From NCBI RefSeq assembly GCF_902764345.1, contig NZ_CACWVT010000005.1: DNA of 64,000 bases; one strand, 5' to 3'. Positions 7,065 to 60,147 of the stretch are shown piece after piece. Source of the DNA: an uncultured Ruminobacter sp. GTDB taxonomy: Bacteria > Pseudomonadota > Gammaproteobacteria > Enterobacterales > Succinivibrionaceae. Under the pieces are notes generated by a model, which was not told the origin of the DNA, ran no database searches, and worked only from the letters and a program-made list of their open reading frames with translations. Position numbers and translations under genes: made by a program. The stretch's first letter is position 1. Each line of letters begins with the position of its first letter.

Positions 7065-7943
7065 ATGATACACAGCATGACCGGATTTGCATCCGTATCC
7101 AACCAGAATGACGCATATATTACTGAAGTCAACATCAAAACGGTAAACTCAAGATTTATGGAAATATCCGTAAGAATCCCGGAAATTCTCAGAATATATG
7201 AAATGGAAATAAGAAATTGTTTTAAAGACTTCTTCAACAGAGGCAAATTTGAAATCTCCATTTCACTTAAGAATAAAATCACCAAAAATGCTCTTGAAGT
7301 CAACAACGATCTGGTTGAAGCTCTGACAGCGCAAGTCTTTGAAATCAACAACGCATACCGTAAAAAAGACCCTGAAGCAAAATGCTGTTTTTCTGCCAAT
7401 GATATACTTATGTATCCAGGGGTCATTACCGACAGAACCGGTGGAAGCGATGATCTGCAGGAACTTATATTCAACAGCGTTAAGGAATGCATGAAGAAAC
7501 TCAATGAATCCAGAGCCCTTGAAGGCGAAAAGATCAAAGACTTCCTCAACGGACATCTCTCAGCAATAGAAACACTCAGAAAGAATATTATAGACAGGAT
7601 GCCGGAAATTGTTGATTGGCAGAAGAGTAAAGTATCCGACTTCATTAAGCAGCATCAGGTCAAAGTTGACGACAGTCTGCTTGAACAGGAAATCATTCTT
7701 CTCTGTCAGCGCATGGATATAGCCGAAGAACTTAATAGATTAAGTTCCCATATTGAACAGGCAAAACACATTCTGAATCAGGGTGGCATCTGCGGTAAAC
7801 GTTTGGACTTCCTTATGCAGGAATTCAACAGGGAAACCAACACCATAGCATCAAAATCCATCAATACGGAAATCACTAACAGTGCCATTGAACTGAAAGT
7901 TCAAATCGAACAGATGAGAGAACAGGTTCAGAACATCGAATAG
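7065..7943 (+). CDS. yicC: YicC family stress-induced protein
   Basis: MIHSMTGFA N-terminus, a C-terminal DUF1732-like KRLDFLMQEFNRETNTIASKS, 292 aa. It is adjacent to pyrE as in E. coli. Confidence 0.9.
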   Translation: MIHSMTGFASVSNQNDAYITEVNIKTVNSRFMEISVRIPEILRIYEMEIRNCFKDFFNRGKFEISISLKNKITKNALEVNNDLVEALTAQVFEINNAYRKKDPEAKCCFSANDILMYPGVITDRTGGSDDLQELIFNSVKECMKKLNESRALEGEKIKDFLNGHLSAIETLRKNIIDRMPEIVDWQKSKVSDFIKQHQVKVDDSLLEQEIILLCQRMDIAEELNRLSSHIEQAKHILNQGGICGKRLDFLMQEFNRETNTIASKSINTEITNSAIELKVQIEQMREQVQNIE

Positions 7944-37470: not shown

Positions 37471-38676
37471 TTAAACAATGATTCTGCTTACAATATATCT
37501 TGCATAACTCTGTTCTTCATTCTCATCAGCCATAGGCTCAATTAAAAGATTATTGGATGATTTGGATAAAGAAATCTTCATCTTTGAAGTGGAAATAACC
37601 CTACAGATGTTATTAAGATAATCTGAATTAAAGGCTATCTCGAAATTATCACCTGTATAGCTTACATAATCTATATCATCCTTGGCTTCTTCATGGTTAC
37701 TGTTCTTTGCCTTAATAGTGAACAATCCATTATTAAGAACCATTTCTACGGCCTTGTTAAGGGAATTACTCATGATTGATACACGAGTTATAGTATCCTG
37801 GAACAGCTTTCTGTCAACCACCAGAACTCTGTTACAATTATTTGGAAGAATAGACGTAATATCAGGGTACTTTGCCTCAATTAAAATACTGAGCATAGAA
37901 ATACCATTTACGGTAGTCTGAAGGCTGTTCTTGTTAATTTTCAATGTGACTATCGTATTGTCATCAGCAGATTCCTTCATTGCTGACATCATTGCTATTA
38001 ACTGATCAACACCCTTCTTAGGGAATATAAAGCCGTTATCATCAAGATTATCAGGAATGATGCAAGGCTCTACCAACCTCCCCTTCTGAAGACTCATTCT
38101 ATGGCCATCAGCAGTAATGATATCAAGTCCCATATTATCATTACCGACAACAGCAAATCTCATCCCCTTCAGGAATACACGATAACTTTCAGCAGCCATG
38201 GAGAACTGGGTTGTCTTCATAACATTCAAAAGTTCATTTAACTCAATCTTTAATTCATAAAGATTATCGAGACATTCTATTGCCGGGAAATATTCAGCAT
38301 CAATAGTTACCATGTTAGATTTAAACTTGCCTGAAGAAAGAACAAGCTGATCATTTGTATTGCCCTCAGTAAAATTTACATAGGCTCCATCAGGTAACTT
38401 CTTAAGAATTTCAAGAAGAATCTTAACATTTACAGTAATTCTGCCTTCCTGGATATCATCGCAGAATAAACCAACCTCAGTTGACATCTGGATTTCAGTG
38501 TCGGTACATACCATACGAAGCTTGTACTTGGCATCCTTGATGGTTGAACCATCATTAGGCAAAATTTCCATCAAAACATTTGAAGTAATCGGATTATTCA
38601 CCGTATTGCCAGCAACACCAGATATATGTCCCAAAGGCTTGAGTAAATCTTCTCTACCTATACTGCACTTAAACAT
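37471..38676 (-). CDS. dnaN: DNA polymerase III subunit beta (sliding clamp), divergent and about 35 aa longer than E. coli DnaN
   Basis: Its position is between dnaA and recF. Motifs are LLKPL..ISGV, TQFSMA, TADGHRM and KYPD. An AAGGAGG RBS is present. Confidence 0.9.
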   Translation of the reverse strand: MFKCSIGREDLLKPLGHISGVAGNTVNNPITSNVLMEILPNDGSTIKDAKYKLRMVCTDTEIQMSTEVGLFCDDIQEGRITVNVKILLEILKKLPDGAYVNFTEGNTNDQLVLSSGKFKSNMVTIDAEYFPAIECLDNLYELKIELNELLNVMKTTQFSMAAESYRVFLKGMRFAVVGNDNMGLDIITADGHRMSLQKGRLVEPCIIPDNLDDNGFIFPKKGVDQLIAMMSAMKESADDNTIVTLKINKNSLQTTVNGISMLSILIEAKYPDITSILPNNCNRVLVVDRKLFQDTITRVSIMSNSLNKAVEMVLNNGLFTIKAKNSNHEEAKDDIDYVSYTGDNFEIAFNSDYLNNICRVISTSKMKISLSKSSNNLLIEPMADENEEQSYARYIVSRIIV

Positions 38677-38697
38677 TATTACTTCCTCCTTATTAAA

Positions 38698-40482
38698 TTA
38701 TTCGGTTAACTGCAACTTAAGATTTGTCCAGTCTTCCATATATTGAGGATCATTTTCTTTATTAATCTTATCGGTAACCTTGTTGTATGCATTAATTACC
38801 GTTGAATGATCTTTGTTGCCAAACTGTTTACCGAGACTCGGATAGCTCCCCTTTGTCAGTTCTCTTGCGAGAGCCATTGCCATCATTCTTGCATATGCAA
38901 TCTGCTTAGGTCTTGCGGATGAATCTATATCTTTCACGGAAATACCATAATATTCAGCAACAACCTGCTTAATGTTATCCACAGTCTGCAGCTTTGCATG
39001 GGCATTTAACGCATCCTTCAAAGCTTCCTTAACAATATCAACGGTAATGGTTTTAATCCTGTTATCACCTGATGTTCCCATAACGTATGCAGCAATAGTC
39101 TTGATATGACCTTCCAACACTCTGACGTTAGTTTGGAACTTATTCGCAAGGAAAACAACGCTCTGATTATCTAAAGCAAGGTTCATTTCCTTAATTTTTT
39201 CAACAATGATACGCTCTCTTGTTTCCTTATCAGGAGGCTCAACCTTAATACTCACGCCGGCAGCTAATCTGTTTCTTATACGGTTATCAAGCTTGCGAAA
39301 TTCAGAATGATGAGAACTTGCTGCAAATACAAGCTGTACGTTAGAACAAATAATTTCATCTAAAAGAGTGACAAATTCTTTAGTAATCCCGGTAGTATTC
39401 TCAAGCTGCTGAATATCATCAATGAGGAACAGGTCAGCACTCCTGTAAAAAGACTTGTAGCTTTTATAAGTGGTTGAGTTTATGCCACCGTTTCGCTTGT
39501 ACTCATTAACAGCACGTAAAAAATCCTGATAAAACTTATCAAGTGTTACAAGGATAATTTTCTTCTCAGGATATTTATTGGCTACCTCATTTGCGATAGC
39601 ATTCAGAATATGAGTTTTACCAAGACCGGAATCACCATGAATAAATATAGGATTACGTTGCGGATTACCCGGATCCTGAGCAACAAGCTTACCTATGTTT
39701 ACGAGTTTTTGGTTGGTAGGTCCTTCAACAAAATTATCAAAGTTTTTCTCTTTCTGAATAACAATGGACTTATAAAAAATATTATTTTTAAACTCATCCA
39801 ATTCAAGAGATGAAGAACCAACAGGCAGAGGCTGTTCAGCTCCACCTGATGAAGTTTCATCATAAAGAGGATTCAACTCAACGTCGTTATAATAATCGTA
39901 ACCCTGGCTATCATTAACAATATTCACATCCTGAGCAATGACATTTTTTGGCAGAATATCTGCCGCCTTCATTTCAGGAAGTTCAGAATAGCTTCCACGC
40001 ATCATCTGCTGTTGATAACCGCCCTGATACTGATGATTGTTTGTAACCCCGGATCCAGCTGATATACCGTCACGAGTCCCACTCATCTGACTCTGACGAC
40101 CACTGTTCATCTGGTTATAGCCATTATCATGATAATGTACCATTTCCGTCTCAGCTTGTGGTCTTATCACCGAACCAGGATTGTTCATACGAACTGGAGA
40201 TGCAAGATTTACGCTTTTATTGACACTGAATTCAGATTGTACTTCTATTGCAACAATAAAGTTCTTGTTTGACACATAGCGAACCGCCTCCACTATGGAG
40301 TCCATGAATTCATTGACAAGCAGTCCCTTGATCATTCTATTTGGCACGAGAATTGAGAAAGTGTTGTCCTGAATGACAACATTTGCCGTTCTCAAAAAAA
40401 TTTTTAACTTTGCAATGGACCTGTTTAAAGGCAGGGAAAACAGGTAGTTTTTCACGTTTTCCCAAAGTTCCAGACTAGCCAA
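38698..40482 (-). CDS. dnaA: Chromosomal replication initiator protein DnaA (594 aa, long domain II linker, TTG start)
   Basis: N-terminal ASLELWENVKNYL, AAA+ GDSGLGKTHIL, the DnaA signature region, and a C-terminal DNA-binding domain (KQIAYARMMAMALARELT...LGKQFGNKDHSTV). Confidence 0.95.
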   Translation of the reverse strand: MASLELWENVKNYLFSLPLNRSIAKLKIFLRTANVVIQDNTFSILVPNRMIKGLLVNEFMDSIVEAVRYVSNKNFIVAIEVQSEFSVNKSVNLASPVRMNNPGSVIRPQAETEMVHYHDNGYNQMNSGRQSQMSGTRDGISAGSGVTNNHQYQGGYQQQMMRGSYSELPEMKAADILPKNVIAQDVNIVNDSQGYDYYNDVELNPLYDETSSGGAEQPLPVGSSSLELDEFKNNIFYKSIVIQKEKNFDNFVEGPTNQKLVNIGKLVAQDPGNPQRNPIFIHGDSGLGKTHILNAIANEVANKYPEKKIILVTLDKFYQDFLRAVNEYKRNGGINSTTYKSYKSFYRSADLFLIDDIQQLENTTGITKEFVTLLDEIICSNVQLVFAASSHHSEFRKLDNRIRNRLAAGVSIKVEPPDKETRERIIVEKIKEMNLALDNQSVVFLANKFQTNVRVLEGHIKTIAAYVMGTSGDNRIKTITVDIVKEALKDALNAHAKLQTVDNIKQVVAEYYGISVKDIDSSARPKQIAYARMMAMALARELTKGSYPSLGKQFGNKDHSTVINAYNKVTDKINKENDPQYMEDWTNLKLQLTE

Positions 40483-47196: not shown

Positions 47197-48445
47197 TATT
47201 ATCTACACTGTTCAACCATAAAATCTTGGGATTAAACTGCTTTGCGGCAAGGATTGTGAGAATTACTACAGCACCGAAAGAAACAAGTGCTGAACCGGGA
47301 TCTATTATCATAATATTCCCCATTCTTACTATGGAAACCATTATTGCAACAACAAACACATCAACCATTGACCATTTACCTATATATTCCACAGTCCTGT
47401 AAAGAATCCCAAGCATTTTCTTCTTTTTAGCTCTCTTGAATGTTTTGTACATGCAACAAAGATAAAACAAAACTATTATTTTAAGAATAGGAATACACAC
47501 ACTCGCTAAAAAAATAACTGCGGATACGAAATAAGACCCCATCTCCCACAGAACAACGACACCTTCAAGAATTGTTGATTCCTCACCGTTTCCCATGTAG
47601 ACAGTTATCATCATTGGATACATATTGGCAGGAATGTAAATGGCCACGGCTGCTATAAGAAACGCCAGACATTTCTGAATACAGTTCTCATTTACAGAAG
47701 CCACCTCCGCCCCACATCTCGGACAATTATGCCCCCTACGCACATCAACTATTCCGCCACATAGATGGCAGTCAGCAAAATCCTGTTTATATGCGGTAAT
47801 GCCACTGATAATAGGCCTTTCAGTTTCTGTTTCCGGAAAGAAATACTCCCACATGACCTGTACATGAAAACGGCTCATGGCCAATATGAACATCAGTGCA
47901 AAAATAATATATGACCAGAAACCAAACTCATATACCACATCAACAAGATTAACCAGTTTTATAAGGCTTACTAGGACTCCTACCACAAAAACATCAACCA
48001 TGCTCCACTGTTTACAGAACTGAAATATTCTTAGCAGCCTTGATATAAACAAATATCGTTTTTTTAGCAAATAACACGTATCACAGATAATAATGGCAAT
48101 TAATGCAACTATTGGCAGAAAATGCATGAACATCATTATCAAAATACTTACAAAACCTAAATCATTATCTGCAAGAACAGATACATAATCCAAAAGATTT
48201 ACGGAATTGTTCAGGCCTGAAAAATTTATGCTCATAAATGGAAGAAAGTCTGTTGATATAATCATTATCAGAGCACTTACTGCAAAGCATAATGAATATC
48301 TTACGGGCGAAGGATGGTAATGATGCAGAATTTTGCCGCATCTGGGACATACCCCTACCTTAACTCCTTCACATTCAGGTATATCAAGCACAATATCGCA
48401 CTGCTCACATATAACCTTCTTCATTTCTGACACGAAAATCCCCAC
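47174..48445 (-). CDS. pqiA: Paraquat-inducible protein A family membrane protein PqiA
   Basis: Two repeats, each with CxxC...CxxC (CEQCD...CPRCG; CHLCG...CPRCG) followed by multiple TM helices. The likely true start is the ATG at 48424 (MKKVICEQCD). Confidence 0.85.
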   Translation of the reverse strand: MGIFVSEMKKVICEQCDIVLDIPECEGVKVGVCPRCGKILHHYHPSPVRYSLCFAVSALIMIISTDFLPFMSINFSGLNNSVNLLDYVSVLADNDLGFVSILIMMFMHFLPIVALIAIIICDTCYLLKKRYLFISRLLRIFQFCKQWSMVDVFVVGVLVSLIKLVNLVDVVYEFGFWSYIIFALMFILAMSRFHVQVMWEYFFPETETERPIISGITAYKQDFADCHLCGGIVDVRRGHNCPRCGAEVASVNENCIQKCLAFLIAAVAIYIPANMYPMMITVYMGNGEESTILEGVVVLWEMGSYFVSAVIFLASVCIPILKIIVLFYLCCMYKTFKRAKKKKMLGILYRTVEYIGKWSMVDVFVVAIMVSIVRMGNIMIIDPGSALVSFGAVVILTILAAKQFNPKILWLNSVDNNDGEQNE

Positions 48446-48681
48446 TTTTGTATATCATCCAAAAGACTTATGCTTTTAAGAATGTTAGTATATCAATAAT
48501 CACAAAACATAGTACAAAAATACAACAAACTGGTTAGCAATAACTCAACCATTATGCCGATATCAAAGTCAAACGGAAATAATGTTTATTCTTCCTGCAT
48601 TTAAGTTGTCTTTATCCTCTCCTTATTGGGATAATATCTGCATATTGTATTGCATTAACCTTAACAGATGAATAAATAAAC

Positions 48682-49809
48682 ATGAACATAGACATATTCT
48701 GCAGAGTAATTGATAATTACGGGGATATCGGGGTCTGCTGGAGACTTGCCAAAGAACTTATGTTATCTGACCATTCAGTGACAATAATTTCAGATCATCT
48801 TGAAGTTTTTGCCAAGATATTCCATGAGGTGAATCCGTCAAAAAACTTCCAGATTTGCTGTTTTAATGGAAAAAATCTCAAATTATACAGATGGCAGGAT
48901 CAGATAGAAAACTACATGCCTGGTGACATGGTTATAGAAGCTTTTGCATGCAATATTCCTGAATCTTTCATTGAAAAGTTCACGGACAAGACCATATGGA
49001 TAAATCTGGAATACCTCTCTGCCGAAGACTGGATTGAAGGATGCCATAAACTGCCGTCTCTTCAGAACAGAGGTTTAAAAAAGTTCTTTTTCTTTCCTGG
49101 TTTTACCTCCGGAACAGGAGGAATAAACTTCAACAGCAATACCTTAAAGCTGGATAAGAAAGAGCTGAGACATCATGTATGCAGACAATTGGGGCTTAAT
49201 CAGACTCTTTCAGACAGATTCTGGTTTTTTATTTTCTGCTATGAAACTCCAAATATAAAAACAGTAATTGAGTGCGTACTGAAACATCACCCAGAAACCC
49301 TGCTCCTCCTTCCGGAAAGCAGAAGTACTGATTATCTTAAAAACACAGGTTTTTTTGAAGAATTAAAAAATGAATTTCCTCACGCCGTGTGTCATGAATA
49401 CCCGATGGTAGAACAGTCAGAATTCGATAAAATTCTCGGAAGCACCGATTTAAATCTTGTCAGGGGTGAAGATTCCATTTGTCAGGCCATGTTATACGGT
49501 ACTCCATTTATTTGGCATATATATGAACAGGATAATAATGCGCATCTGGAAAAGTTGGAAGCAATGCTGGACAGATTCTGTAAATTCGCAACAGATGAGA
49601 CCGCATCAGTCATCAGAAAGGCAATGGTAAAATTCAATGAGAAAATATCAAGTCAAGATATACTTTGTGCAAATTTTAATGAATTTATGCTAGAATACGA
49701 TAAAATTTGCGAGGCTGCTGAGAAGTGGTCTGATTATTTATATGCAAACAATAACCTCAGCACAAATCTTTTAAAGTTCTACTACGATTTGACTGAAAGA
49801 AAATTTTAA
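48682..49809 (+). CDS. earP: EF-P arginine-32 rhamnosyltransferase EarP
   Basis: N-terminal IDIFCRVIDNYGDIGVCWRLAKEL is the hallmark EarP (DUF2331) motif. It lies immediately upstream of an Arg32-type efp. Confidence 0.85.
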   Translation: MNIDIFCRVIDNYGDIGVCWRLAKELMLSDHSVTIISDHLEVFAKIFHEVNPSKNFQICCFNGKNLKLYRWQDQIENYMPGDMVIEAFACNIPESFIEKFTDKTIWINLEYLSAEDWIEGCHKLPSLQNRGLKKFFFFPGFTSGTGGINFNSNTLKLDKKELRHHVCRQLGLNQTLSDRFWFFIFCYETPNIKTVIECVLKHHPETLLLLPESRSTDYLKNTGFFEELKNEFPHAVCHEYPMVEQSEFDKILGSTDLNLVRGEDSICQAMLYGTPFIWHIYEQDNNAHLEKLEAMLDRFCKFATDETASVIRKAMVKFNEKISSQDILCANFNEFMLEYDKICEAAEKWSDYLYANNNLSTNLLKFYYDLTERKF

Positions 49810-49834
49810 CTTTTATCTATAAGGTAGAGAATAC

Positions 49835-50398
49835 ATGAAAACCGCACAGGAAATCCGCGCCGGCAACGTTATCATCGTAAATAACAACCCAATGGTTGTT
49901 CTTAAGTCTGAATTCAACAAGTCAGGCCGTAACGCTGCTGTTGTTAAGATGAAATTAAAGAACCTCCTCAGCGAAGGTGGTACTGAAACCGTATTTAAGG
50001 CTGATGAAAAGCTTGAAGACGTAATCCTTGAACACAAGACCTGTACCTATTCTTATTACAGTGATCCAATGTATGTATTCATGGATGAAGAATACAACCA
50101 GTATGAAATCGAAAAAGAATACTTAGGTGATGCAATCAATTACATCGTTGACGGTATGGATGACGAATGCACTGTTACTTTCTACAACGGTAAGGCAATT
50201 AGTCTTGAATTACCAATCACCATCGTAAGAGAAGTAGAATACACCGAACCATCTGTTCGCGGTGATACTTCAGGTAAGGTTACCAAGCCAGCACGTCTTG
50301 CAGGTACCGGTTATGAAATTAGCGTTGCTGATTTCGTAAAGACTGGTGATAAGATTGAAATCGATACCCGTACTAACGAATTCAAGAAGCGTGTTTAA
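49835..50398 (+). CDS. efp: Elongation factor P (EarP-type, Arg32 loop)
   Basis: [12 protein letters not shown]...[20 protein letters not shown]. The KSGRNAA loop is the rhamnosylation-type signature and is close to Pseudomonas EF-P as recalled. Confidence 0.95.
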
Positions 50399-50423
50399 TC
50401 AATAACGCACTGTTTTTAACAAA

Positions 50424-50451
50424 AAGGAACTCTGATAGAGTTCCTTTTTTT
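50424..50451 (+). terminator. Rho-independent terminator after efp
   Basis: AAGGAACTC-TGATA-GAGTTCCTT followed by TTTTT. Confidence 0.85.
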
Positions 50452-50459
50452 ATTTGATA

Positions 50460-51282
50460 AAGCATTTACTGAATTTGACATTACAATAATCCTAACAATT
50501 ATTTATACATATCATCACGCTCCACATAATTACTTTACCTTGTCTGTAACGGACATATCTTTATTAATTATCAGTATTCTCACTCATAAAAAAAATGAAT
50601 CAGTTAAACACAGCTGAAAGGTAATATTTAAAAACCGAAACATATACACCTTAAGAATACAATTTAAAAACAACCTTCATCTTCAGATCTTCACAATTAA
50701 CAACACCATAACTGTAAAGAAAACATTTTCAGAAAAAATATGTTAAAAACCGTAAAAACAAAATCAAAAAAAATCACCGTTAACACACAAAAACTCATAT
50801 ATAATAGACAACGTTATTGACATATTAGTAATCCTTCAATGTTTTAAAAATTGCCTAAAGCCATTGATTTTACTAGCTTTAGCATATACATTGCCCTATG
50901 TTGACAAACATATAATTCACAGAAATACTAACGTGTGCATGTTTATTCGGTGGATATATTATTAACATGTGAATAAATTAACATTTTTTGTTTACATATT
51001 AAATTATTCAAAATTGGACACAGCATTTAATCATGTCAAAAGATAATATTTCTTCAAAGTTAAAAATAACGGAAACCCGCATAAAATAAGGGTGGCATCC
51101 ACTTAAACACAGGATCCGAAGAAGTAAAAAGAAAAGAAAAAGAAATTGATTTAATAAAATATAGAATAAAGAGAAAAGCAAAAAAACAAAAATCTGTCTC
51201 TAAAAAATGACTAAATAATCAAAAAACATTAAAATGCAGTCAATTTTTAGAAAACCTTCAATAATAATTCAAAGAGGCCTTT
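50460..51282. other. oriC: Candidate oriC region upstream of mnmG (about 820 bp ORF-free, AT-rich, DnaA-box-like 9-mers, A-rich tract)
   Basis: One perfect box, TGTGAATAA (50968..50976, the reverse of TTATTCACA). One-mismatch boxes are TTAAACACA (50604..50612 and 51103..51111) and TAATTCACA (50913..50921). An extremely A/T-rich tract spans 51121..51240. I saw only two GATC sites. Confidence 0.4.
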
Positions 51283-53175
51283 ATGTTTTACCATGAAACT
51301 TTTGATGTAATAGTAGTAGGTGGTGGTCATGCCGGTATAGAAGCATGTACGGCAAGTGCAAGAATGGGCTTAAAAACCTTATTACTTACGCATAATCTGG
51401 AAACACTTGGACAAATGTCCTGTAATCCAGCTTTTGGTGGTTTAGGTAAAGGCCATCTGATTAAAGAAATCGACGCCTTAGGCGGCGTTACAGCACGTGC
51501 AGTAGATCTGGCAGGCATTCAATTCAGAACACTGAATTCATCAAAAGGCCCAGCAGTAAGAGCAACAAGAGCTCAGACAGACCGTGTTCTATATAAAATG
51601 GAAATGCGAAAGATTTTGGAAAACTATCCAAATCTGACCCTGTTCCAACAGCCTTGTACAGACCTATTAATGGAAGGTGATACCGTGGCAGGTGTTGTTA
51701 CCCAGGCCAATATCAAAATAAGAGGTAAAGCTGTTGTTCTTTGTAACGGTACTTTCCTTAACGGACTGATTCATATAGGATTAGAACACTACTCAGGTGG
51801 CAGAGCCGGAGATGCCGCTAGCATTGCATTGTCTCAAAGGCTTCACGAACTTAACCTTCGTATGGGCAGACTTAAAACAGGAACTCCATGCCGTATTGAT
51901 AAAAGAACAGTAAACTTTGAAAAAATGCAGAAACAGCTGCCTGACGCCGTAATTCCAGTATTTTCATATTTAAGTAAACCTGAAGATCACCCTCAGCAGG
52001 TTTGCTGCTACATAACTCATACTAATGAAAAAACACACGACATCATAAGAAAGAATTTAGACAGAAGTCCTTTGTATTCAGGTGTTATTCATAGTATCGG
52101 ACCTAGATACTGTCCATCGATCGAAGATAAAATCATGAGATACCCTGATAAGGATTCTCATCAGATCTTTATTGAACCAGAAAGTCTTTACACGAACGAA
52201 CTGTATCCTAACGGTATATCAACCAGTCTTCCTTTTGATGTTCAGGTGGATATGGTTCATTCCATGAGTGGTCTGGAAAACGCAGTACTAGTAAGACCCG
52301 CATACGCCATAGAATATGATTTCTTCGATCCTAGAGATCTGAAAGAAAATATGGAAAACAAGTGTATTAAGAATCTTTTCTTCGCAGGACAGATAAACGG
52401 TACCACAGGTTATGAAGAAGCTGCTGCTCAGGGCATGCTTGCAGGTATCAATGCAGGTTTAAGAGTACAGGAAAAAGAATCATGGTGTCCGAAAAGAGAT
52501 GAAGCATATGTCGGTGTTCTGATGGATGATCTTTGTACTCTTGGTACCAATGAACCTTACCGCATGTTTACCAGCCGTGCAGAATACAGACTCCTTCTGA
52601 GAGAAGATAATGCAGACATCAGACTTACACCGAAGGGAAGAGAATTAGGACTTGTAGACGATGTTCGCTGGAAATTCTTTGAAGATAAGCTTGATATGAT
52701 CGAAAAAGAAAAACAGCGTCTGAAAGATACCTGGATTGGACCTGGTAATGCCATTGCCAATAAATTAAACACTATTCTGAAAACTCCTATAAGCAAAGAA
52801 CAGTCTTTGTTGGAAATTTTACGCAGACCTGAAGTTACTTTTGAAAATATGATGAAAACTGCTGAGCTTGAACCTATTGCAACCAATGAGCAGGCATCAT
52901 CACAGGTTGAGATTCAGGTGAAGTATGAAGGTTATATTGATCACCAGCAGGATGAAATCGATAAGCAAAAGAAAAATGAGAATACTTATCTGCCTTTAGA
53001 CTTCGACTATAACCAAATCCCAGGATTATCTAAGGAAGTTATTTTTAAACTCAATGATTTTAAGCCTGAAACCATAGGTAAAGCTTCAAGAATTTCGGGA
53101 ATCACGCCAGCCGCAATTTCAATTCTTTTGGTTCATTTAAAGAAACTCGGATTATTGGGTATTAAGAACAGTTAG
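51283..53175 (+). CDS. mnmG: tRNA uridine 5-carboxymethylaminomethyl modification enzyme MnmG (GidA)
   Basis: [16 protein letters not shown] (FAD motif), 630 aa, followed by rsmG. Confidence 0.95.
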
Positions 53176-55570: not shown

Positions 55571-57342
<1,772 letters not shown>

Positions 57343-57359
57343 TACAAGGAGGTTATTTT

Positions 57360-57558
57360 ATGGAATTTATTTATATTGCAGCGGGTTTAATGTTCGGTCT
57401 TGCATCAATCGGTGCCGCTATCTAAATTCATGGAAGGTGTTGCCAGACAGCCTGACTTACTCAGCCTCTTAAGAACCCAGTTCTTTATCGTTATGGGTCT
57501 TGTTGACGCTATTCCAATGATTGCGACAGGTCTTGGTCTTTACGCAGTTGTAAAATAA
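57360..57558 (+). pseudogene. atpE: F0F1 ATP synthase subunit c, disrupted by an apparent 20-nt deletion/frameshift
   Basis: AAGGAGG RBS at 57346..57352. Frame 1 reads [21 protein letters not shown], then TAA at 57423..57425. The frame from 57424 reads [44 protein letters not shown], with its stop at 57556..57558. The canonical G-x-G-x-L-G-G stretch between the two pieces is missing. Confidence 0.8.
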
Positions 57559-57580
57559 TTAAGCCATTGAGGGGCGTATT

Positions 57581-58051
57581 ATGAACATTAATATGACGTT
57601 TGTTATACAGATGATTGCATTTGGAATATTTGTTTTTATCTGTATGCGTTTCCTGTGGCCCGAAATCTTAAAGACAATTTCCGAAAGACAGAAAGAGATT
57701 CAGGATAGTCTTGATAAAGCAAGAGAGGCTGTTCAGAAAAGTGAACTGACAGAGGTTCAGTCCAAGGAAATTATAAAGAAGGCCCATCAGCAGGCTGTTG
57801 AAATTGTCGATGCGGCAAATAAGAAGAGAGATCAGATAATTGATAAGGCGGCCGAAGAGGCTAAGCTGGAAAAAGCTTCCATCATTAAGACTGCTGAAGC
57901 TGAAATTCAGAGTGAAAAAAACAGGGTTAAGGAAGAACTCAGAAAGGAACTTTCCAATCTTGTTGTTATAGGAACTCAGAAGATTATTGAGACCAAACTG
58001 GATGCAAAATCCGAATCAGCAATGGTTGATGATGTTTTAAAGCATATCTAA
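57581..58051 (+). CDS. atpF: F0F1 ATP synthase subunit b
   Basis: A single N-terminal TM helix followed by a long charged coiled coil; 156 aa; operon position. Confidence 0.9.
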   Translation: MNINMTFVIQMIAFGIFVFICMRFLWPEILKTISERQKEIQDSLDKAREAVQKSELTEVQSKEIIKKAHQQAVEIVDAANKKRDQIIDKAAEEAKLEKASIIKTAEAEIQSEKNRVKEELRKELSNLVVIGTQKIIETKLDAKSESAMVDDVLKHI

Positions 58052-58060
58052 GGAGTTGTT

Positions 58061-58591
58061 ATGTCTGATTATGCAACAATAGCCAGACCATATGCCAGAG
58101 CAGCGTTTGATTATGCAAAAGAACACAACAGAACTGATGAATGGTTTGAATTTTTATCAATGCTTGAGCAGGTAACCACTGTTTCCTCCGTTCTGTCAGC
58201 AGGAAACAGTTATACCGATGAATACAAACTGAATTTTATAAGAACGATTCTAGAAGAACATCTCGATAAGAATCAGGAAAACTTTGTAAGACTTTTACTT
58301 GAGTACAAGCGTTTTGAAGCCGTTAAGGATATTCTTAAGCTGTATCGTGAATTGTATGATGAGTTAAAGAAGGTAGGCATTGCAGAGATTGTATCGGCCA
58401 AACAGCTTTCATCAGAGCAGCTCAATAAGATTAAAAAACGTCTTGAAGAGAAGTACGATAAGAAGTTTGAACTTGTAAATACTGTAGATTCATCAATTAT
58501 TGGCGGTTTGATTTTAAAAATCGAAAATAAAGTGATTGACGAAAGCATTAGTGGAAAACTGGGTAGATTATCCGGTTCCTTATTATCATAG
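58061..58591 (+). CDS. atpH: F0F1 ATP synthase subunit delta
   Basis: [14 protein letters not shown]-terminus, IIGGLILKI near the C-terminus; 176 aa. Confidence 0.9.
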
Positions 58592-58605
58592 AAAGGAATT
58601 TAAGT

Positions 58606-60147
58606 ATGCAACTGAATTCTATTGAAATAGCCAATCTTATAAAGGAAAGAATTGAGCATTTTGAAGTTGTTACGGAAGCCAGATCCGAAGGTACGGTTGT
58701 TTCCGTATCAGACGGTATTGTACGTATTCACGGCATAAATGATGTTATGCAGGGTGAAATGTTAGAGTTACCCGGCAATAAGTTCGGATTGGCTTTAAAT
58801 CTGGAACGTGACTGTGTAGGTGCCATTGTGATGGGTCCTTATACAGACATTAAGGAAGGCGACAAGGTAAAATGTACTGGTCGTATACTTGAAGTTCCTG
58901 TAGGTAATGGTTTACTCGGCCGTGTAGTAGATGCGCTCGGTCGTCCTATTGACGGTAAGGGGCCTGTGAAGAATGATGGTTTTTCTCCTGTTGAAGTAAT
59001 CGCTCCGGGGGTTATTGCCAGAAAATCAGTATCTCAGCCTATTCAGACCGGTTACAAGTCTGTTGATGCCATGATTCCTATCGGCAGAGGTCAGCGTGAA
59101 CTTATTATCGGTGACAGACAGGTCGGTAAGACTGCTTTGGCCATTGATACCATAATCAATCAGAAAAATTACGGCGTAAAATGTATTTATGTAGCCATTG
59201 GTCAGAAAGCCTCAACAATTGCCAATGTTGTTAGAAATCTTCAGGAACACGACGCTCTCGATAACACAATTGTTGTTGCAGCTTCAGCCTCAGACACGGC
59301 AGCCCTTCAGTACATAGCTCCTTATGCAGGCTGTGCAATGGGTGAATACTTCATGCAGCATGGTGAAGATGCACTGATCATTTACGACGATCTTTCAAAG
59401 CATGCCGTTGCGTATCGTCAGATTTCTCTGTTGCTCCGTCGTCCGCCTGGACGTGAAGCATATCCTGGTGACGTATTCTACTTACATTCACGTCTGCTCG
59501 AAAGAGCTGCGAGAATCAACGCAGAATACGTGGAAAAGATAACAAATGGCGCAGTTAAGGGTAAGACAGGTTCTCTGACAGCTCTGCCTATAATTGAAAC
59601 TCAGGCCGGCGACGTGTCTGCGTTTGTACCTACAAACGTTATTTCAATTACAGATGGTCAGATATTCTTAACCACTCAGTCATTCAATGCCGGTATCAGA
59701 CCTGCGGTTGACCCTGGTATTTCAGTGTCACGTGTTGGTGGTGCTGCACAGACTAAGCTGATAAAGAAACTGTCCGGCGGTATTCGTACTGCTTTGGCTC
59801 AGTATCGTGAATTGGCTGCGTTTTCTCAGTTCTCAAGTGATCTCGATGAAGCAACACGCAAACAGCTGAATCACGGTGAGAAGGTTACTGAACTTATGAA
59901 GCAGAAACAGTATCAGCCATTAGATGTTGCTCAACAGGCTCTGTTGCTTTTTGCTGCAGAAAGAGGATTTATTGAAGACATCGAATTGGATAAGGTTGCC
60001 TCATTTGAAACCTCTCTGCTAAGTTTTGCTCAGTCATCATACGCAGAAGACATGAAGAACATTAACGCAAATCCTGATTATAACGATGAGTTGATTCAGA
60101 AGCTTACTGATATTCTCAATAAGTTTAAGGAAACTCAGACCTTTTAA
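58606..60147 (+). CDS. atpA: F0F1 ATP synthase subunit alpha
   Basis: Walker A GDRQVGKT; 513 aa; highly conserved throughout. Confidence 0.97.

Follow-up and report, generated by a model that had tools for sequence, protein, structure and literature searches.

A frameshifted atpE in a Ruminobacter metagenome contig is very probably an assembly error at a collapsed, mis-joined tandem gene pair

The stretch of DNA analyzed here (64,000 nt of contig NZ_CACWVT010000005.1 from an uncultured Ruminobacter sp., hereafter the window) carries the genes of an F-type ATP synthase in atpIBEFHAGDC order, as judged from the succession of open reading frames and the Pfam families of the neighbors, with atpE placed between atpB and atpF (Table 1). 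The atpI-like, B, F, H, A, G, D and C reading frames are all whole, as an earlier note made from the DNA letters had held, and atpE is broken. The course of the break could be read in the sequence just as that note described it: an ATG at 57360, preceded by AAGGAGG, opens 21 codons that run into an in-frame TAA (57423–57425), and the sequence for the rest of the c subunit lies in the +1 frame, from 57424 (K) to the stop at 57556–57558. The window gene does not form the continuous two-helix-hairpin reading frame of ~70–85 codons, which in every other assembly is unbroken at 75 codons. The GxGxGxG packing motif of helix 1, which appears as GIGILGG in all other alleles, is absent from it; the polar loop (ARQPD) and the ion-binding carboxylate of helix 2 (GLVDAIPM; D61 in E. 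coli) are encoded in the +1-frame part (57424–57555). When scored against PF00137 (gathering score, 24 bits), an intact allele reaches 49.1 bits, and the 65-aa product obtained by correcting the frameshift of the window gene reaches 24.0 bits, which falls exactly on the cut-off.

Table 1 Features of the atpB–atpF region as assembled in the window (gene positions are counted from the first base of atpE)
Feature	Coordinates	Strand	Remarks
atpB (a subunit, 447 aa)	55999..57342	+	Intact; 17 nt 5′ of atpE; PF00119, 166 bits; identical product in many contigs
Shine-Dalgarno AAGGAGG of atpE copy 1	57346..57352	+	Same in all related contigs
atpE codons 1–21 (gene positions 1–63)	57360..57422	+	Copy-1 variants 6A, 24G; same bases in L091 and L114 (100% identical upstream)
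Breakpoint 1	57422..57423	+	20 nt gone; in-frame TAA results
Gene positions 84–203, within the 179-nt core	57423..57542	+	+1 frame; ends ...GLGLY
Breakpoint 2	57542..57543	+	9 nt (Leu-Ile-Phe) gone; interval spans discriminating sites 204 and 213
atpE 3′ end (gene positions 213–228)	57543..57558	+	Copy-2 variants 213C, 216A, 225A; stop TAA
52-aa ORF (TTG start) holding the out-of-frame c-subunit remainder	57400..57558	+	PF00137, 22.5 bits (cut-off 24)
atpF (b subunit, 156 aa)	57581..58051	+	Intact; anchor for finding other assemblies

Comparison with the atpE of relatives, the means by which the earlier note proposed to define the deletion endpoints, sets them at gene positions 64–83. Aligned to otherwise identical intact alleles, the window lacks the 20 nt GGTATCGGTATCCTCGGTGG between 57422 and 57423; these encode GIGILGG (G27–G33 in the 79-residue numbering of E. 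coli), the last Gly codon being represented by two of its bases. The loss of seven glycine-rich helix-1 residues through a 20-nt deletion, with the ensuing frameshift and early stop, had thus been called exactly. The remainder of the gene had also been called perfectly conserved, a description that missed a second, in-frame deletion of 9 nt (CTTAATTTT) after 57542, at gene positions 204–212 or, given a 1-nt ambiguity of placement, equally 205–213. The residues removed, Leu-Ile-Phe, are the equivalents of V74–F76 in the same E. coli numbering. With each breakpoint marked by a slash, the junctions as assembled read GCTATC/TAAATTC (first deletion) and TCTTTA/CGCAGT (second deletion). Relative to atpE of the same genotype, the window shows this specific 29-nt difference, the rest of the stretch being 100% identical, and the lesion is not a chance pattern.

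Sequence comparison identifies the gene as an ordinary F-type subunit c whose defining features are compromised in the assembled copy only. A gap-free alignment (E = 3e-32) pairs the intact Ruminobacter allele with residues 4–76 of the 8dbq chain of E. coli AtpE (PDB 1a91 and 8dbq), equivalent to 6–78 in the 79-residue numbering of 1a91; the two have in common GIGILGG, the ARQPD loop, the helix-2 carboxylate and a gene placed between atpB and atpF. The window version departs from the E. coli protein in its frameshift and in both deleted segments, and E. coli has one atpE, whereas this Ruminobacter species has two in tandem.

Evidence for the tandem pair comes from contigs of ruminant gut metagenomes, including those of Stewart et al. 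2019 (PMC6785717), that were found through an identical b subunit. Proteins identical in sequence to those of the window are recorded as Ruminobacter sp. or uncultured Ruminobacter sp. (Succinivibrionaceae). An intact 75-aa c subunit (PF00137) is encoded in every contig with this b subunit, and in most of them twice in tandem; the independent contigs with both genes number at least 12 and represent two clades (91–99% nucleotide identity). In one NCBI MAG the same 75-aa protein is filed under two consecutive accessions. The locus reconstructed for the genotype of the window holds, between atpB and atpF, a tandem pair of intact atpE genes of 228 nt each, separated by a 33-nt spacer that bears an AGGAG of its own (261-nt period), and the stretch that joins the copy-1 tail, the spacer and the copy-2 head reads ...GTTGTAAAGTAATTTGCTTACACGATGACTCTAGGAGATATTTAAATGGAG.... 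The interval from atpB to atpF is 528 nt in the reconstructed locus vs. 238 nt in the window. Both copies encode the same 75-aa protein, differ only at the synonymous positions 6, 24, 204, 213, 216 and 225, and are identical over a core of 179 nt (25–203).

The reconstruction draws on contigs that match the window base for base. In sample SAMEA5383815, scaffold_187 (L122, L102, L114) corresponds to window positions 7085–29223 and 33481–57417 with 0 mismatches and 0 gaps, and ends at atpE position 58. From the same sample, scaffold_2201 (L117) begins at copy-1 position 149, carries the variants 204T, 213T, 216G and 225G, and proceeds through the 33-nt spacer and a complete, intact copy 2 (6G, 24A) into atpF and beyond, with 0 mismatches to window positions 57559–59791. 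The k=141 contig L116 has the two-copy structure from copy-1 position 76 and 0 mismatches to the window downstream; L091 (k=87) equals the window for 3,861 nt upstream, as far as 57422, and from there carries the intact sequence through positions 64–111; and L098, with 0 mismatches over 3,228 nt, has one intact atpE copy. The full tandem structure lies at 1–341 of L117, 1–414 of L116 and 2490–2978 of L001. Contigs of the same genotype were compared with ~48.3 kb of the window and depart from it at atpE alone (the two deletions and the missing repeat unit); other strains diverge from the window by 0.3–1.4% and the second clade by 6–9%.

Among the alleles collected, all 18 polymorphic sites of atpE fall at third codon positions and the protein is invariant, and by this pattern the gene is judged to be under strong purifying selection. 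A single atpE was found in 79 of 79 other gammaproteobacterial atp loci, a panel assembled by an AtpB-based scan of genome contigs with the widely conserved pattern FGNMYAGE, in which the matches listed were distant gammaproteobacteria (≤65% identity) and did not include the species of the window. Variants 6, 204, 213 and 225 are copy-specific across the clades 6–9% apart, and the core variants 159, 168 and 198 are common to both copies within each clade. Since the ends remain copy-specific across clades and the core is shared within a clade, the pair indicates an old duplication undergoing concerted evolution, its core apparently homogenized by gene conversion. On these comparative grounds, we regard the conserved tandem duplication as a real feature of the species.

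A comparable arrangement has been described in Acetobacterium woodii, whose atpE2 and atpE3 are adjacent in one F-type operon and encode identical c subunits (PMC7911925). The likeness lies in the neighboring genes, their single F-type operon and their identical products. The two systems differ in that A. woodii belongs to the Firmicutes, its enzyme depends on Na+ and it has an additional, double-hairpin atpE1, whereas Ruminobacter is a gammaproteobacterium with two ordinary single-hairpin genes, in which no Q...ET sodium motif is apparent by eye. For Proteobacteria, the literature searched yielded nothing relevant on identical atpE genes in tandem.

The single atpE of the window bears the marks of both genes: its head has the copy-1 variants, its core is common to both and its tail has the copy-2 variants (Table 1). 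The second deletion opens at 204, where the copies first diverge 3′ of the core, and extends to 213, the discriminating site that follows; the first deletion touches no site at which the two copies of this genotype differ. Breaks at this repeat also occur in other assemblies, at places largely set by k-mer length and the discriminating sites. The Stewart dataset was assembled with a list of k values ending at 87, with idba_ud used for single samples (PMC6785717). Contigs built at k=87 end at 111 and start at 117, as predicted by 24+87 and 204−87, and three k=141 contigs end at 165, as predicted by 24+141. A Logan contig ends at 54, which agrees with 24+31−1 at the value of k that we take Logan to use, namely 31. 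Two scaffolds that end at 58 and 65 were not fitted, and scaffold L006 has an N-gap inside the repeat, which it leaves unresolved. Three further assemblies (L098, L005 and L099) have a clean single copy that is the same chimera without the deletions, and we read these as collapsed because the 179-nt core is longer than even k=141. A core exceeding k, breaks defined by k and a chimera of the first head and the last tail are what collapsed tandem repeats look like in short-read metagenomes and MAGs, and independent assemblies of the same genotype have two copies where the window has one. The window differs from a simple collapse, with its clean single copy, in having two extra small deletions.

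Comparison with the other assemblies favors the population or assembly artifact that the earlier note had listed as one possibility. From this comparison, we consider it very probable that the break in atpE arose when the tandem duplicate was collapsed and mis-joined during assembly. The source genome would have had a tandem pair of intact atpE genes in the atpB–atpF interval; assembly would have dropped one repeat unit and left a single chimeric copy (copy-1 head, core and copy-2 tail); and mis-joins would have cost 20 nt at the passage from the copy-1-specific head into the core, and 9 nt at the transition from the core to the copy-2-specific tail. We infer both the two-copy structure in the sample from which the window came and the software step behind the bad joins. 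A junction absent from all reads cannot come from a pure de Bruijn graph, so a later scaffolding, gap-closing, merging or polishing step is assumed. As a matter of speculation, breakpoint 1 would fit idba_ud arithmetic at k=40 and k=60 (63 = 24+40−1 and 84 = 25+60−1, with a step of 20). Because the repeat would have been mis-joined, the frameshift and premature stop would be properties of the assembly and not of the cell, which most likely makes a normal c-ring; the lesion is real in the sequence and, most likely, not in the organism. Indel-prone sequencing (e.g., unpolished long reads) was rejected as a source, given zero indels against Illumina-based contigs over the 48 kb compared.

A very recent inactivating mutation had also been proposed. 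In its fullest form, unequal crossing-over would have left one chimeric copy, two deletions would have followed, and the cell would have no F-type c-ring. The lesion is, after all, present in the sequence as given; the deletion-free single-copy chimeras in L005, L099 and L098 make a one-copy state conceivable; and the second deletion lies between imperfect 5-nt direct repeats (TTTAC/TTTTC, 9 nt apart) that could support replication slippage. However, the first deletion has no microhomology, the single-copy assemblies are better read as collapse, and strong purifying selection acts on atpE and the other operon genes, which are intact. Two intact copies stand in contigs of the same genotype, and the lesion occurs in no other assembly searched. 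Moreover, a real allele needs three independent structural events (two deletions and the loss of a 261-nt unit) at one repeat, within ~490 nt, vs. zero substitutions, indels or other differences over ~48 kb, whereas one failure at a hard repeat accounts for the whole lesion. We therefore hold this course of events to be quite unlikely. It is likewise unlikely that the rumen harbors a real Ruminobacter subpopulation that is null for atpE, its one collapsed copy bearing two deletions, and has all other F1Fo genes intact; if it did, part of a fermentative gut population would be able to do without the F-type ATPase, or would be losing it.

Searches for the lesion elsewhere agree with its confinement to the window. 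Both junctions are absent from 47 Ruminobacter loci, and with synonymous positions made degenerate neither matched in JGI metagenome contigs, scans that were run without a positive control and so count as a weak negative. Gene calls corresponding to the remnant, with three possible starts (52, 42 and 48 aa), were not found among the gene products recorded in the collection searched, although gene callers may skip ORFs so short. The further suggestion that the cell relies on another c subunit stands in part: the species normally has an adjacent second atpE. That copy is missing from the window assembly, and tblastn returned no second c-subunit gene elsewhere in the window.

The same redundancy invites another account, whereby one of the two copies is decaying and a collapse has threaded the assembly through the segments of the damaged copy. 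Two copies are the norm and their identical proteins make one gene dispensable in principle. The first deletion, however, follows a copy-1 head and the second is flanked by copy-2 variants, so the two would lie in different copies and both genes would be inactivated; in the same genotype, copy 1 is intact over 1–111 and 76–228 and copy 2 throughout; and purifying selection acts on both copies across clades 6–9% apart. We give this account very little credence. Programmed +1 ribosomal frameshifting at ATC-TAA-A that restores a full-length product has next to no probability, its superficial likeness to prfB-type sites (a 0-frame stop with a continuing +1 frame) notwithstanding: the site occurs in the window assembly only and relatives have a plain continuous ORF, the product would lack 10 conserved residues (GIGILGG and LIF; 24.0 vs. 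49.1 bits intact), and the re-pairing from AUC to UCU, as inferred from the genetic code, is not cognate. Frameshifting or bypass of any programmed kind was rejected, as the missing residues are encoded nowhere nearby and the site is not conserved.

With collapse and mis-joining as the preferred explanation, the lesion has little biological weight; the organism most likely has a normal c-ring and two genes for its c subunit. Its interest lies instead in being a worked example of a short tandem duplication, with a 179-nt core longer than k, that was collapsed and corrupted in a metagenome-assembled genome. In this way an essential operon comes to hold what looks like a pseudogene; annotation pipelines would label atpE accordingly, and metabolic reconstructions could wrongly score the ATP synthase as incomplete. 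The tandem atpE pair, together with an a subunit that has four extra predicted helices, may merit attention with regard to ATP synthase diversity.

This a subunit, the product of atpB, is 447 aa long vs. 258–271 aa in other gammaproteobacteria. An insertion of 123 aa (residues ~283–405, window ~56845–57213) with four predicted hydrophobic helices lies between the Arg-bearing helix and the final helix (WALFHILII), that is, at the tip of the H5–H6 hairpin, which faces the c-ring. All Ruminobacter contigs have the insertion and Succinivibrio lacks it; it is 85% identical between clades vs. 97% for the core of the protein; from its sequence, we take it to be a real feature. No homologue of the insertion was found outside Ruminobacter, in an insensitive search that returned one Ruminobacter fragment and missed a known full-length Ruminobacter cluster, which makes the negative untrustworthy for other taxa. 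A second insertion of ~50 aa with several cysteines (residues ~25–95, window ~56070–56280) follows the N-terminal HHLxxLQ motif; it also occurs in Succinivibrio (L011, L012), and Enterobacterales, Vibrio, Gilliamella and Aeromonas lack it. One of these Succinivibrio-like loci, L011 (CAVHVI010000031.1), is binned as "Bacteroidaceae bacterium" and carries a gammaproteobacterial atp operon of Succinivibrio type; its a subunit, 47% identical to that of the window, very closely resembles its counterpart in the Succinivibrio MAG L012, and by sequence the contig is probably mis-binned.

Upstream of atpB, the ORF in the atpI position (55571–55993; 140 aa, hydrophobic) has no Pfam match at E ≤ 0.01 but is conserved, an identical product being encoded in many contigs. 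Farther upstream, GC skew changes sign near 50 kb (48000–52000), between dnaA/dnaN (minus strand, 37471–40482) and mnmG (51283–53175). The genes near this switch include dnaA/dnaN, mnmE and mnmG-rsmG-parAB, and the window is consistent with containing the region of the chromosomal replication origin.
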